Shown here: one piece after another, positions 3,812-9,122 of the stretch
Layout: each line of letters opens with the position of its first letter
How positions within the stretch are numbered: the first letter of the stretch is position 1
Assembly (NCBI GenBank): GCA_963723235.1
Contig: CAVRPV010000020.1
Coordinates: 19,250-83,249 of the forward strand
Reading direction: 5' to 3'
Source: an uncultured delta proteobacterium
GTDB lineage: Bacteria; Desulfobacterota; WTBG01; CAIYCZ01; CAIRTM01
DNA: 64,000 bases
Position numbers and translations under genes: made by a program
Notes under the pieces: generated by a model
Told to the model about the DNA's origin: nothing
What the model saw: only the letters and a program-made list of their open reading frames with translations
Databases searched by the model: none

Positions 3812-4201
3812 TTACTTTTCTGAACGCTTGCGGGCCAGAAGCTTGTCCAAGCCCTCAAAAGGTTTGAAATCTTTTGAGGTTTTTTTATCGATTGTGGCGG
3901 GTTCAGCATACCATTGCGCATCAGCTCCGCGCTCATGCAGCTCGTCATGGCAGTATATGCACAGCAACTCCCAGTTGCTGCCGTCCGGCGGGTTATTGTC
4001 GTGATTGTGGTCTTTATGGTGTACGGTCAGCTCACGCAGCTTTTTACCCTCAAACTCACGGCTGCACACCGCGCACACATGCGGCAGAATGCTGAGCGCC
4101 CGGTCGCGGTAGCTGCGATGGGTCTGCTGACGCTCACGGCGCACATCATCATAAAAACGCCTGAGCTTCTCATCTTCATCCGGCTGCTTCGCTGAACTCA
4201 T
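3812..4201 (-). CDS. yajD: YajD-family HNH nuclease
   Basis: YRDRAL..CAVCSREF..LRELTVHHKDHNHDNNPPDGSNWELLCIYCHD matches the YajD signature. Confidence 0.9.
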   Translation of the reverse strand: MSSAKQPDEDEKLRRFYDDVRRERQQTHRSYRDRALSILPHVCAVCSREFEGKKLRELTVHHKDHNHDNNPPDGSNWELLCIYCHDELHERGADAQWYAEPATIDKKTSKDFKPFEGLDKLLARKRSEK

Positions 4202-4237: not shown

Positions 4238-5043
4238 CTACAAACCAAATTCGCTCAACAAATCGCGGCTGAGATAGGCCTCATCCTCGAAACGCTGTTG
4301 GGCTTTTTCATCATTTATCCATTCAATCCAGGTTCCGGAAACCTGATTGTTAAGCATTTCCTCTACCAGCCAAGGCGTGACCGTTTCAACCGTGTCTGCC
4401 AGAATATTGAATATCACCCTGGCCTGTTCGCGCTGCTCAGTATCCATTTCCTGCCAATCAGAAACCAGCAGATCCGTTATCACCATGCCCGGACTGATGA
4501 CGCCGACCTGTACATCACTGCCTTCGGTCTCCTTGACCAACGCTTGCGTAAAATAGCGCACCGCCCTTTTGCTGGCGCCGTACACGCTCATGCCGGGCAG
4601 AATCATATCATTGCTGCCGTGGCCCTCAGTGTTGTACACAGCGCCCGATCCCTGCTCCCGCATGCCGCGCAGGGCTACCTGACATCCGTTCATCATTCCG
4701 GTAACGTTCGTATCAACCACCTGGCTAAGCTCGGATGCGATCAAGCTCCCAGAGCATTTTGCGGGCATGACTGATACCGGCATTGTTGATCCAGATGTCC
4801 ACCTTTTCAAAAAATGTACAGGCATGATCCCACAGGGCCTGAACCTGGGCAATGTCGGTTATATCGCACGGCAGGCCGGTCACACGGCCCTTCCCATACT
4901 GAGCTTCAAGATCAGTACATACCTGCTGAACCGCAGTCAGCGCTGCGCGAACTGATAACGACCCTGCAGTCGCGCTTCAAAAATTCACGGGCAAGCCCCA
5001 GCCCGATACCCTTGGTGCTGCCGGTTATTACAACTGACTTCAT
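4238..5043 (-). CDS. SDR-family oxidoreductase (paralogue of 5075-5878), broken by two apparent +1 insertions
   Basis: ATG 5043 with RBS GGAGG reads MKSVVITGSTKGIGLGLA. The middle frame gives CDITDIAQVQALW..DIWINNAG, and the last frame gives YGASK. Shifts lie near 4945 and 4740. Confidence 0.85.
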
Positions 5044-5074: not shown

Positions 5075-5878
5075 CTATAAACCATAGTGTGAAAAAAGAT
5101 CCCGCGACAGGCGGCTTTCATCTGCAAAATATGCATTCGCCTTTTCCTCGGGCATCCACATTATGCGGCGGCCGTTTTCGGTATTGGCCAACACCTCCTG
5201 GACCAGAAACTGCGTTACGGTTTCAACATCATCAGCAAGCACATTGTAGACCGCCTTGGTAATTTCAAGCTGCTCAGGGGCCATCTTGCGCATGTCATCA
5301 ATAAGGAAATCGGTCAACACGATTCCGGGGCTGATTGTTCCGACCTGCACCGGACGGCCCTCAACTTCCTGCGCAACAGCCTCGCTGAAATAACGCACCC
5401 CGCGCTTTGTGGCGCCGTATACACTCAAACCATTGACCAGCATGTCATCGCTGCCGAAACCTTCAGAGTTATATACCCGGCCAAAGCCCTGGGCCAGCAT
5501 GCCCTGCAATGCAACCTGAGTTCCGTACATAACACCGGTGAGATTGGTGCTGACCACCCGGGGAATTTCACGGCTTTCAAGCTCCCACAATTGGCGCGTT
5601 GTGTTGGCAATGCCGGCGTTATTCAGCCAGATATCAACCGCTCCGAACCGATCAACAGCAGCCTGCCACAAAGCGCGCACCTGCTCAATATCGGTAACAT
5701 CGCAGGCAAAACCTGCAACTTTTTCTGATCCATACTGTTCCCGGGCCTTGAGCAATTCCTGTTCCAACTCCTGTCTGGCAAAACTGCTCAGCATGACCTG
5801 ATGGCCGCTCTTGAGAAAGTGCTGAGCCAGGCCAAGCCCAATTCCTTTTGAACTACCGGTAATAACAGCTGTTTTCAT
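5075..5878 (-). CDS. SDR-family oxidoreductase
   Basis: TGxxxGIG Rossmann motif, NNAG, and catalytic YxxxK (YGATK). Confidence 0.95.
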   Translation of the reverse strand: MKTAVITGSSKGIGLGLAQHFLKSGHQVMLSSFARQELEQELLKAREQYGSEKVAGFACDVTDIEQVRALWQAAVDRFGAVDIWLNNAGIANTTRQLWELESREIPRVVSTNLTGVMYGTQVALQGMLAQGFGRVYNSEGFGSDDMLVNGLSVYGATKRGVRYFSEAVAQEVEGRPVQVGTISPGIVLTDFLIDDMRKMAPEQLEITKAVYNVLADDVETVTQFLVQEVLANTENGRRIMWMPEEKANAYFADESRLSRDLFSHYGL

Positions 5879-6023: not shown

Positions 6024-6830
6024 CTATGGCGTCCAGCGCTGATATACCCGCATACCTTCTGCCCGGAACTTCTGATTCGCAATTGTAATCTGCGTTGGTG
6101 TGATCTCGCTGATGACAAAAGCTTTTTTCACTCCCTGCCTGAATGCTTTCAAGCGGGCCTCACGCTGCTCCGGCGTAGCGTCGGCTGGAACCCGGGCACC
6201 GAATTCATAGGGCAGCAACTCAATCATGATGCGTTCAAAATCAGGATCATCGCCATGAAGCAGGCGCGCGGTACCGCGTATCTGCACACACAGGAAGTCC
6301 TTAAAGGTCTCACTGTCGAACTCCTTGTGATAATTCATGCTCACTTTTGGATTGGCCTCGATATGGCGCAGTTTCTCGGTGCCGGCCTCATGAAATCCAT
6401 AGAGCTTGCCTGTTTTCGGATCAAGGGTCCATTCGCAGGTGGTCGACAGGGGCACATTGTTGAGGCTTGTGGCCAGGATGAATGTTTTTGAGTCGTGTTT
6501 CAGGCCGCCGATAGCTTTTTCAATTTCAGCCCAGACGCGCTCTTTGGACATCACGCCCTCACCCTCGCTATGGCCGGGCGACTGACCGAACAGGTAGACC
6601 TTCGTGGCGGTAGTAGTGGCGTCAAGCTTGATTTCATGGCAGTCATTGCAGCTCAGTCCCGGCTCGATCTCGGGATGTCCGCTGTCGACTTCCGCAGCCG
6701 CGACAATCGCCTGCGCCTTTGGTGTCTCCTGCGCCTGCTGCACAACCGTATCAGCCGCAAAGCGTCCGCAGCCGAAAACAGCAAAGAACAATGCACTGAT
6801 AATTAACACACTACTCGCTCTTTTTTTCAT
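6024..6830 (-). CDS. Lipoprotein with one CxxCH heme-c motif fused to a pyridoxamine-5'-phosphate-oxidase-like split-barrel domain
   Basis: Lipobox VFGC, GHP..SCNDCH, and split-barrel segments TEKLRHIEANPKVSM and VQIRGTARLL. Confidence 0.8.
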   Translation of the reverse strand: MKKRASSVLIISALFFAVFGCGRFAADTVVQQAQETPKAQAIVAAAEVDSGHPEIEPGLSCNDCHEIKLDATTTATKVYLFGQSPGHSEGEGVMSKERVWAEIEKAIGGLKHDSKTFILATSLNNVPLSTTCEWTLDPKTGKLYGFHEAGTEKLRHIEANPKVSMNYHKEFDSETFKDFLCVQIRGTARLLHGDDPDFERIMIELLPYEFGARVPADATPEQREARLKAFRQGVKKAFVISEITPTQITIANQKFRAEGMRVYQRWTP

Positions 6831-6845
6831 ACCATGCTCCTTCCC

Positions 6846-7442
6846 TTAATGCTTGATAAGACCGTCTATGATTGTTGTAATGTTCAGCCTGTGCTGTTCC
6901 TGCAAATCAAAATCCAAAGGTACGGTAAAATAGCTCAGGAAAAAACCCATCGAAAGAAAATACAGGGTGCGGGCGACTCCTTCCGGCGCAACCGGCTTAA
7001 AAATGCCTGAATCGATCCCCTCCTGAATCAGCGCGGCGATCGTAGCAACCCGATGCCTGTACATTGAGGCAACTTCATCACGGAAGTCAGGCTCCCGCGA
7101 ACTCATGGCCACAAAATCAAGACAGAAACGCAGGATCGGCTCATGTGAGAAAAATATCTCGCCTGACTTTTCCACCAGCAGGCTCAGACGTTGGGCCGCA
7201 TCAGAGCGGCTGCCAATCTCGGCGGTCAGGTACTCAAAGTAGCGGTTGACCCTATTCCTGAACAGCTCAATACCAAGCTCTTTTTTAGACTTGAAATGAT
7301 GATAAATGCCGCCTTTAGAAATGCCGGCCTGGGCGGCGATTTCATCAATGGAGGTCTGATAGTACCCGTTGCTGTTAAAACAGCTCAGCGCAGCCTCAAA
7401 GATCTCTTCGCGCCGCTGTTCCGGCGCCTTGTTGACAGCCAT
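6846..7442 (-). CDS. TetR/AcrR-family transcriptional regulator
   Basis: N-terminal HTH RREEIFEAALSCF..TSIDEIAAQAGISKGGIYHHFKSKKEL. Confidence 0.95.
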   Translation of the reverse strand: MAVNKAPEQRREEIFEAALSCFNSNGYYQTSIDEIAAQAGISKGGIYHHFKSKKELGIELFRNRVNRYFEYLTAEIGSRSDAAQRLSLLVEKSGEIFFSHEPILRFCLDFVAMSSREPDFRDEVASMYRHRVATIAALIQEGIDSGIFKPVAPEGVARTLYFLSMGFFLSYFTVPLDFDLQEQHRLNITTIIDGLIKH

Positions 7443-7444
7443 AG

Positions 7445-9122
7445 TTACACCAAATAAATTCCGACCAGTCGGTATGTATTATAGAAATTAACACTCGTCA
7501 ATACATATTTTGTCAAGCCGTACCAGTTTTTTAATACCAATAGCATCACCGCTACAGCAGCAGACTCAACGCTCCGCAACCCGTCAACTGCACTTGAAAC
7601 AATGCCGCCTGAATAGCCTGCCCCCTCGCCGACCGGAATAAGGCCGGCAATGCCGATAGCCTGAAACGTTTCCGGATCGCGCAACATGCGCACCGGCGAG
7701 GATGTGCGGGTTTCTACGCCTATCAAAATGCCCTGTTCGATAAAGCCGGGTATTTTTTTATCAAACGCAGCAAGCGCCCGGCGCAGCGGCTCAACAACAA
7801 AACCGGGCAACAGCCCGGCAAGATCAGACGCGGTCACCCCGGGCTTAAATGAAATATCCGAGACAGGAAGTGTCGTGGAGGCCTGCCCGCGCATAAAATC
7901 AGCGGCCCCCTGTACCGGTGCGTAATATGGGGAGCTGCCTGCGGTATAGGCTAGTCTTTCTATGTGCTCCTGAAATGCAAGGCCGCCCAGGACGCCCCCG
8001 TCTGTATAATCATCGGGTGTAACCGTCACCACAAGTGCGGCATTGGCACGGGCGCTGCCGCGATTTGAAAAGCTCATGCCGTTCACGCACAGCGTGCCCG
8101 GCTGTGAAGAACAACCGATAACCAGGCCTCCCGGGCACATGCAAAAACTGTACACCCCTCTGCCGGAAGCCTTGTCGGCATGTGTCAGGGCATACTCAGC
8201 TGGTCCGGCGACAAGGCGCGTATGCTCGTCGCGCCGCATACTGCGATCAATCAGAGCCTGGGGATGTTCAATGCGAACTCCCACGGCAAAACCCTTGGGC
8301 TGCAGACACATGCCCCTGCCAGAGAGCATCCGTAACGTATCACGGGCGCTGTGGCCGACGGCCAGCACAAGTAGCCCGGTTTCGATGTGCCTGCCGGAAA
8401 CTCGTATACCCTGCACCTGCCCCTTTTCAATCTCGATATCATCCATACGGGTGTTAAATCGAAACTCAACACCCTTTGTGCGTAAACGTTCAACCAGCGC
8501 CGGAATAACCTGCCGCAAGCGGTCAGTACCCACGTGCGGGCGGGCCTCATACACTATGCTTTCATCCGCCCCGCAGGCAACCAGTTCCTCAAACACCCGC
8601 TGTTTCAATGGTGAGGTACTGCGGGCAGTCAATTTCCCGTCTGAAAAGGCCCCGGCCCCGCCCTCCCCGAACACGACATTCGATTCAGGATTAAGTGTGC
8701 CGCGATTCCAGAAAGCCTGAACCTCCGCAATACGCTCAGATATCCGAGCCCCCCGTTCAATCACCAATGGGGGACATCCGCGCTCTGCAAGCCCCAGGGC
8801 CGCAAAAAGACCGGCCGGGCCGGCCCCGACCACAATAGGGCGCTGTTGAAGGCACAGGCGCGGTCCAGGCGACGGCAAGGGCTCATCCTGAAACAGGCTC
8901 ACCCTTGATTCGGAAAGCATCCGCGCCAGTTCCTGCTGATCAAGGCACACATCAGCTGCAAGGCTGTATTCGTAGAGCAGCGTGCGCTGGCGCGCGTCAA
9001 GTGAGCGGCGCAGGATACGCATGGATTTAATGCGGCTCAGCTGCAACGCCAAGCACCTGGGCAAGCGCTTCCAGCAGCGCGGGCTCATCCGTGACGCTCA
9101 GGCGCAGGCCTGTGATTTTCAA
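7445..9122 (-). CDS. FAD-dependent oxidoreductase (HI0933/YhiN-like uncharacterised dehydrogenase), with apparent indels near both ends
   Basis: VVGAGPAGLFAA, GEGGAGAFSDGKL and GEGAGYSGGIVSSAVDG. The N-terminus LKITGLRLSVTDE lies in another frame from TTG 9122. The true stop is probably the TAG at 7552-7554, since the ORF-track tail runs through the tetR promoter region. Confidence 0.85.
7459..7474. promoter_or_regulatory. Probable TetR operator palindrome
   Basis: TTCCGAC-CA-GTCGGTA, 17 nt upstream of the tetR start codon. Confidence 0.6.

Follow-up and report, generated by a model that had tools for sequence, protein, structure and literature searches.

Background

How does an exported protein that is built around a normally cytoplasmic flavin barrel retain its cofactor outside the cytosol? 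The question is raised by a single open reading frame (ORF) at positions 6024-6830, on the minus strand of the window, by which we mean the whole 64,000-nucleotide stretch of DNA from an uncultured delta proteobacterium analyzed here (contig CAVRPV010000020.1). The ORF encodes 268 amino acids plus a stop codon, and its product, designated P0001, carries in order an export signal, the segment G51-H52-P53-x6-S60-C61-N-D-C64-H65, the heptapeptide D70-A-T-T-T-A-T76 and a split beta-barrel of the PNPOx type. An earlier note on this DNA had recognized a VFGC lipobox, the GHP-x6-SCNDCH segment and a split barrel, all of which are borne out by the sequence, Pfam, an AlphaFold2 (AF2) model and Foldseek. 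It had overlooked the heptapeptide, a putative ApbE-type flavinylation motif that most likely explains how such a barrel could hold flavin in the periplasm. We lean toward reading P0001 as a periplasmic two-cofactor reductase with covalent heme and flavin mononucleotide (FMN), in which the FMN is tethered within the split barrel.

ApbE recognizes the motif D-x-x-[S/T]-G-A-[S/T] (PMC12052999) and joins FMN through a phosphoester bond to its last Ser/Thr (PMC12052999; PMC8238504). A precedent comes from FMN_red and from Flavodoxin_4, as both have been shown to be ApbE substrates in which a terminal or inserted motif puts FMN into the old non-covalent site; the bond is argued to prevent loss of flavin outside the cytosol (PMC11334425).

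The flavinylation motif

The heptapeptide (D70-A-T-T73-T74-A75-T76; 6603-6623, minus strand; codons GAC GCC ACT ACT ACC GCC ACG) agrees with the ApbE motif at the Asp, the Ser/Thr, the Ala and the terminal Thr, with Thr74 in place of Gly. The motif starts 5 residues past the heme His65, which puts Thr76 11 residues past that His. Residue 70 lies in the exported part of the chain, with a signal peptide and lipobox ahead of it.

Homologue searches that covered 5.8 billion and 1.84 billion proteins found 118 clusters of similar length and 79 representatives at 50% identity, few enough for databases of this size to indicate a rare family. A second search, with a heme-less relative as seed, brought in a large branch of gut Firmicutes and Actinobacteria. 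Conservation was counted in an alignment of all 266 family members of at least 200 amino acids. Position 70 is Asp in 261 of them, position 73 Ser or Thr in 263, and position 75 Ala in 253, while position 76 carries a hydroxyl in 264 (Thr in 145, Ser in 119). Residues found at the Gly position, 74, are Thr (121), Gly (110), Ser (25) and Ala (6). Motif conservation is on par with that of the barrel core, for which the counts are T151 262, K153 261, N160 263 and Q183 260, and by these alignment counts no other feature of the family is better conserved than the D-x-x-T-T-A-T-type motif. In an alignment of 38 sequences, which reaches down to 32% identity, the residues that never vary outside the barrel are H52, C61, C64, H65, D70, A75 and T76.

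A relaxed form of the motif occurs in 51 of 54 family ORFs and, as a control, in 3 of 735 unrelated ORF products of the same loci. The motif starts exactly 5 residues past the heme His in 122 of 131 family members. Heme-bearing P0104 carries a perfect motif, DGATGAT. P0198 (DALTTAS) and P0175 (DTVSGAS) are 75% identical, so Gly and Thr swap between close relatives. With Thr76 as the predicted FMN-phosphoester site, we infer with moderate confidence that P0001 is flavinylated.

The split barrel

The barrel spans residues 96-268 (6027-6545, minus strand). Pfam PNPOx_N (PF01243) matches residues 105-222 (6165-6518) with an E value of 6e-10 and 40 bits, against a cut-off of 28.1. An AF2 model built with 38 homologues has a mean predicted local distance difference test (pLDDT) score of 84, exceeding 90 across most of the barrel, and is ill-defined for residues 30-70. 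When this model was compared with the Protein Data Bank (PDB) using Foldseek, the top 50 matches were all PNPOx-like split barrels, at a probability of 1.00 and a best E value of 3.7e-8. A sequence search of the PDB returned general stress protein 26 (GSP26, PDB 3ec6) only, at an E value of 0.0017, so there is no close template. Near-invariant barrel residues are T121, P127, E148, T151, K153, N160, Q183 and G186; of these, we take T151-x-K153, N160 and Q183 to be the flavin-contacting residues of PNPOx-type barrels. Barrels of this type are dimers with flavin at the interface.

Export signal and heme site

A Sec-type signal peptide (residues 1-20) followed by the lipobox Cys21 is encoded at 6768-6830 (minus strand), and AF2 models residues 2-28 as a helix. 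Residues 1-21, MKKRASSVLIISALFFAVFGC, comprise a basic n-region, a hydrophobic core and the lipobox V18-F19-G20-C21 (6768-6779), with A-V-F-G-C21 satisfying the relaxed PROSITE-type lipobox rule [LVI][ASTVI][GAS]C. The signal peptide of P0001 lacks a twin-arginine motif, and a low-complexity linker separates it from the G51-H52-P53 region. The earlier note had held that a lipobox not conserved among homologues would refute its reading, and that part of it does fail: beyond the closest relatives, the lipobox Cys is seen in only a few scattered members, a loose lipobox pattern being present in 45 of 153. Judged from these sequences, the family-wide trait is an N-terminal export signal and not lipidation.

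The c-type heme attachment motif C61-N-D-C64-H65 lies at 6636-6650 (minus strand; codons TGC AAT GAC TGC CAT) and the candidate distal axial heme ligand, His52 of G-H-P, at 6675-6677. Both the CxxCH of this exported protein (38/38) and His52 are invariant in the alignment of 38 sequences. Across the family, CxxCH is present in 136 of 266 members, 131 of which also have a His in the H52 column; no heme-less member has one. Any CxxCH at all occurs in just 9 of 735 unrelated ORF products of the same loci, and this control together with the 131/136 pairing argues that the features of the heme site are not due to chance. The window's genome encodes a cytochrome c assembly protein (PF01578, CcsA/CcmC/CcmF type, 186 bits). 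Covalent attachment of a c-type heme to C61/C64 is strongly inferred from these features. Conservation of the His and CxxCH in homologues, a check proposed in the earlier note, is confined to heme-bearing members, the remaining 130 of 266 having no CxxCH.

On its N-terminal segment, P0001 scores above threshold with none of the cytochrome families of Pfam, which leaves the earlier comparison with a class III cytochrome heme unit as an analogy only. Membership in the class III (c3-type) cytochromes was considered and rejected, as the Cytochrom_CIII, c3 and c7 profiles do not match this segment. Relatives show sub-threshold Pfam similarity only, to Cytochrome_C7, Paired_CXXCH_1 and MtrC/MtrF. 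The relative P0141 bears two heme sites.

Heme-less relatives

The 130 heme-less members keep both motif and barrel. Heme is therefore, on the sequence evidence, an add-on of one branch, and the motif goes with the barrel and not with the heme. A maximum-likelihood tree requires at least 3 changes of heme state. Two heme-less clades (P0128/134/148/152/155/172 and P0122/125/130) are nested within the heme clade and keep D-x-x-[ST]-[TSAC]-A-T. In the heme-less gut branch the motif is exactly canonical, ending in GAS in 98 of the 130 (e.g. DTVSGAS, DALTGAS, DTITGAS and DAVSGAS). Many gut members consist of LysM, an FMN_bind domain (PF04205) with its own DTVSGAT site, and the motif/barrel domain, with FMN_bind preceding the motif and barrel where P0001 has its heme site. 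Three heme-less loci adjoin extracytosolic FMN_bind/FAD_binding_2 reductases with LuxR-type regulators, or molybdoenzymes.

Some of the gut Firmicutes proteins (P0166 and P0204-P0215; loci L064-L067) have a LysM or copper-amine-oxidase-like N-terminal domain ahead of FMN_bind, motif and barrel, and are predicted from this layout to be cell-wall-attached two-flavin proteins; their genes adjoin an AraC regulator and N-acetylglucosamine utilization genes. The heme-less P0122, P0125 and P0130, paralogues from within the host order, and likewise those of G033:C8 and G041:C9, have a C-terminal extension of ~110 amino acids ending in a conserved T/MPRLIY..QR, a tail that could be a sorting or anchoring signal. 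In their source annotations the homologues are called "hypothetical", "general stress protein 26" or "NimA-like".

ApbE and the host genomes

The window's genome (83% complete) encodes one exported ApbE (G000:C10, L001 ORF 1342-2409), which scores 289 bits and has an N-terminal hydrophobic anchor; Rnf/Nqr was not found in this genome at that completeness. Its only other candidate ApbE clients are two FMN_bind proteins, with the motifs DMITGAT in one and DAVTMAT, with Met at the Gly position, in the other. The FMN_bind region of the DAVTMAT protein scores 18.6 bits against a 22-bit cut-off. In this genome, then, a residue other than Gly stands at the Gly position in an FMN_bind region too, and such regions are the classic ApbE substrates. 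Both proteins (L072 331-1995 and L074 172-1887; G000:C10) are exported, are ~560 amino acids long with a C-terminal FMN_bind region and, as read by eye, seemingly have two thioredoxin/peroxiredoxin-like domains ahead of it.

The host belongs to an uncultured order of Thermodesulfobacteriota, for which 21 species-level genomes from 12 genera were searched. The barrel family, with its heme-bearing form, is present in all 21, with 1-11 matches each (mostly 3-11), as is ApbE; Rnf/Nqr occurs in 8 of the 21. In three of them (G031-G033), ApbE and 4-7 copies of the family gene are accompanied by no FMN_bind or Rnf/Nqr match. A sample of 301 genomes from the phylum included 10 of the host order, and the heme-bearing form was confined to these, with 0 of the 291 others having it. 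All but a few of the 53 loci from GTDB genomes belong to metagenome-assembled genomes (MAGs) labeled as uncultured Thermodesulfobacteriota or "delta proteobacterium", the few having different or broader bin labels. DNA of the region was found in freshwater, sediment and wetland metagenomes; the search of sequencing runs returned DNA metagenomes only and no RNA run.

Two paralogues in the same genome are incomplete. One (L060 1495-2314; G000:C3:61241-62045) is broken into three frames with TGA stops and still reads NHPEIPEGASCNDCH..DANTTAT; it has a Flavodoxin_5-like gene upstream and an SDR (short-chain dehydrogenase/reductase) gene downstream, so that the barrel-SDR pairing recurs. The other (L059, G000:C11), a third paralogue, has a truncated C-terminal end.

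Operon context

The P0001 gene is preceded by a ribosome-binding site, GGAAGGAG (6837-6844, minus strand), 6 nt ahead of its ATG. A TetR-family regulator (6846-7442, minus strand; Pfam TetR_N, E value 6e-17) is the first gene of the conserved operon, and its stop codon (6846-6848) lies 15 nt upstream of the barrel-gene ATG, a proximity that suggests a coupled operon. Downstream, across a 145-nt gap, is a cytoplasmic SDR (5075-5878, minus strand; Pfam adh_short, E value 3e-40). A terminator scan showed no terminator-like site between the barrel gene and the SDR and a terminator-like hairpin after the SDR (5005-4988), and was otherwise uninformative, including for promoters. A second SDR copy (4238-4883, minus strand) is split over two frames, with ORFs at 4238-4852 and 4725-4883; it is intact (267 amino acids) in the 92%-identical locus L005, and the split copy would be either a frameshift pseudogene or an assembly indel error.

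Neighborhoods were compared by clustering the ORFs of 54 sources, namely 53 related loci and the window. The commonest gene order is TetR, family gene, SDR, often with two SDRs; TetR lies less than 3 kb from the family gene in 23 of the 54 sources and SDR does so in 22. In variant loci the family gene is separated from the SDR by an aldehyde:ferredoxin oxidoreductase or by an aldo-keto reductase that has Fe-S domains, and in others (L011, L014) an exported Flavodoxin_5 protein lies between TetR and the family gene. Other paralogue operons contain two FAD_binding_4 proteins, a CCG/Fe-S protein, a thiolase, FAD-dependent oxidoreductases and FMN_red proteins. The SDR partner matches generic ketoreductases only, which gives no clue to substrate. 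In this gene's own operon type, mostly cytoplasmic carbonyl-redox partners and a repressor of the small-molecule-sensing kind hint at a carbonyl or quinone-type substrate.

Exported Flavodoxin_5 (HemG-like) proteins with signal peptides are encoded in the same operons as family members at L014 9250-9936 (P0314) and L025 6304-7422. The phosphate loop of P0314, D-T-K-H-G-A-T-S-S, resembles the ApbE motif, and P0314 may be a further exported flavoprotein in need of flavin tethering. Beside paralogues, uncharacterized proteins recur, of which one cluster (c13; L054 4784-6229, L047 7516-8184) shows faint similarity to ferrochelatase (E value 5e-3) and another (c7; L033 13388-14128) to ferredoxin-dependent bilin reductase (E value 9e-4). 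A tetrapyrrole theme near the paralogues is thus possible, with all of these matches below cut-off. Also encoded beside paralogues is c16 (L048 7432-9585), a large protein that is exported, ends in an acidic Asp/Ser tail and matches no family. In the window itself, a 129-amino acid HNH-motif protein (3812-4201, minus strand; ...HHKDHNHDNN...CIYCHDELH) lies downstream of the SDR pair and recurs in L005 and L006 (c32). Directly upstream of TetR, and also in L005, is a 547-amino acid FAD-dependent protein (7445-9088, minus strand; FAD-depend_C, PF21688, E value 4e-66), which might form one unit with TetR, barrel gene and SDR.

Alternative explanations

A number of observations weigh against a tethered FMN. 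The Gly position is Thr or Ser in about 90% of heme-bearing members, and a Gly-to-Ala mutation is reported to halve flavinylation (PMC12052999). The AF2 model is of no more than moderate confidence around the motif (pLDDT 55-81 for residues 61-90), and its Foldseek matches include heme and F420 binders besides FMN binders. The operon partners are cytoplasmic and none marks an electron donor or substrate. FMN_bind proteins, found in 17-18 of the 21 genomes of the order, could also account for most of the presence of ApbE there. No apbE lies near the family gene in the 53 clustered loci or in other contigs looked up, the single ApbE of each clustered-locus genome sitting elsewhere, so that what ties the family to ApbE is the motif and co-occurrence only. 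In an alternative reading, P0001 would be a mono-heme c-type cytochrome whose barrel binds a non-covalent flavin or none, with the heme as sole fixed redox center and the motif as a degenerate relic of an ancestral flavinylation site or a structural or phosphate-binding loop. We consider this unlikely, though it is the alternative to be taken most seriously. It would account for the replacement of Gly by Thr/Ser in nearly all heme-bearing members while heme-less ones mostly keep Gly, it is in line with the "modular flavin or cytochrome" substitution that Meheust et al. describe (PMC8238504), and it needs no adjacent apbE. A relic, however, would not be expected to keep D70, A75 and the hydroxyl at position 76 near-invariant to about 30% identity, and Gly and Thr do swap between 75%-identical relatives. 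The Thr/Ser/Ala/Cys variant is moreover carried by nested heme-less paralogues that have no other cofactor site, and a Sec-exported barrel would be left without evident means of retaining a dissociable flavin in the periplasm.

The heme binders among the Foldseek matches (heme-bound NohD, At3g03890, ChuZ, PaiB and MSMEG_6519) raise the further possibility that the barrel is a tetrapyrrole binder of the HugZ/ChuZ/NohD/PaiB type, serving in periplasmic heme or bilin processing or scavenging, or that the protein's own heme c docks in it. The bilin reductase-like and ferrochelatase-like neighbors of paralogues and the HemG-like flavodoxins would suit such a role, but these neighbor similarities all fall below curated cut-offs and none occurs in this gene's operon type. 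At the sequence level the barrel matches the flavin/deazaflavin family PNPOx_N, with T-x-K, N-P and Q-x-x-G near-invariant, and a tetrapyrrole-binding barrel would leave the flavinylation-type motif and the FMN_bind fusions without a role; we regard it as improbable. Less credible still, by a wide measure, is an exported F420-dependent oxidoreductase of the PPOX class. Its appeal lies in the best NCBIfam matches, which are all F420-dependent PPOX families, and in Rv1155-F420 being among the top fold matches. The NCBIfam scores nevertheless fall far short of their cut-offs (TIGR03618, 24.9 against 79.05; TIGR03667, 18.7 against 125.3; TIGR04023, 15 against 85.6), and F420 is a cytoplasmic, dissociable cofactor for which we know of no periplasmic supply. 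The PNPOx-like barrel assigned in the earlier note is upheld by the above-cut-off match to PNPOx_N, with F420 as its cofactor unlikely.

Proposed mechanism

The reading that we prefer, a covalent heme and a tethered FMN in one periplasmic reductase, can be set out as a sequence of steps. P0001 would be exported by Sec and reside in the periplasm, lipid-anchored in this species. There the unfolded exported chain would meet two periplasmic maturation systems. The cytochrome c maturation system would fix heme on C61/C64, with H65 as proximal and H52 probably as distal axial ligand, giving a bis-His low-spin electron-transfer heme. ApbE would move FMN from flavin adenine dinucleotide (FAD) onto Thr76, and the tethered FMN would then fold into the presumed flavin pocket of the PNPOx-type barrel. 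With 11 residues between the heme His and Thr76, the two cofactors should lie within electron-tunneling distance. Electrons might pass from the periplasmic cytochrome pool to heme, to FMN and on to a small diffusible substrate at the barrel, although this direction of flow and the kind of substrate are only weakly inferred. The earlier note had likewise envisaged a periplasmic heme-to-flavin redox protein, and its general idea is the one favored here; the heme has turned out not to be part of the family's core. As a whole, the earlier interpretation is partly supported.

Significance and novelty

We see an even chance of a broader proposal, in which PNPOx barrels form a third "converted" class of ApbE-flavinylated proteins and the gain of heme has produced the smallest known covalent heme-FMN diad, dependent on two maturation systems. 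The paralogues, for the most part 3-11 to a genome and each with a regulated catabolic operon of its own, would then constitute a toolkit of periplasmic reductases, and ApbE would accept Thr, Ser, Ala or Met in place of the "invariant" Gly. If true, this would extend the types of protein flavinylated by ApbE and loosen the motif that it recognizes, with relevance to genome annotation and to "flavin-tagging" and "flavin-fixing" in protein engineering. It would also supply a transplantable natural heme-FMN module, compact at about 25 residues, and would present cofactor tethering as a route for relocating the fold of a cytoplasmic enzyme to the outside of the cell. The family would represent unrecognized periplasmic reductases, with the heme form universal and multi-copy in one uncultured order and heme-less cousins common in gut Firmicutes and Actinobacteria, beside respiratory flavin reductases.

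The earlier note did not recognize the architecture as characterized, and we found no paper describing it and no curated family. Neither the N-terminal module nor the full-length protein is covered by a Pfam or NCBIfam family. PNPOx and split barrels go unmentioned in two systematic flavinylation surveys and a 2025 review of ApbE, and their supplements contain one incidental PNPOx gene, classed as "OTHER". Full-text literature searches for PNPOx, split barrel or pyridoxamine in connection with ApbE or flavinylation, and for PNPOx in connection with periplasm and c-type cytochrome, returned nothing relevant. Because the genes are never beside apbE, published co-localization screens probably missed the family. 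The combination of heme site, flavinylation motif and split barrel is thus undescribed in the literature found, and is best placed, pending biochemistry, with the extracytosolic ApbE-type flavoproteins and the flavocytochromes c.

Comparison with known systems

A close parallel is offered by proteins of the FMN_red and Flavodoxin_4 types (2024, mSystems, PMC11334425), which are likewise extracytosolic kin of non-covalent flavoproteins to which an ApbE motif has been added on an extension or insertion. P0001 differs from them in having a PNPOx split barrel and not a flavodoxin-like fold, and in a motif that is N-terminal, mostly has Thr for Gly, is preceded by a c-type heme site and is never encoded beside apbE. 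The FMN_red pocket lies at a dimer interface, as does the flavin of PNPOx-type barrels. The FMN_bind carriers NqrC, RnfG, PplA, NosR and PceC (Meheust et al. 2021, PMC8238504) resemble the family in being exported or extracytosolic and, as predicted for it, in carrying FMN on the last Ser/Thr of the motif and serving extracytosolic electron transfer, and gut relatives of P0001 are even fused to an FMN_bind domain. P0001 itself lacks the FMN_bind fold, and its flavin would occupy an enzyme-type barrel and not a small carrier domain.

In the flavocytochromes c, such as the Shewanella fumarate reductase Fcc3/FccA and flavocytochrome c sulfide dehydrogenase, a periplasmic covalent heme c feeds a flavin domain, as is proposed for P0001. 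These proteins use FAD, a large FAD_binding_2 or glutathione reductase-type domain and a folded (multi)heme domain or separate subunit, whereas P0001 would combine a heme site of ~15 residues and an FMN site in one 25-residue peptide ahead of a 170-residue barrel. GSP26 (PDB 3ec6), Rv1155 and the NimA-type nitroimidazole reductases share its fold and core signature but are cytoplasmic, bind dissociable FMN or F420 and lack the signal peptide, heme site and flavinylation motif. Finally, the minimal bis-His heme units of c7/c3, MtrC-type and magnetochrome proteins also have a His ~9 residues before CxxCH and scant fold of their own; compared with such multiheme cytochrome units, P0001 reaches no family threshold and has a single heme site.

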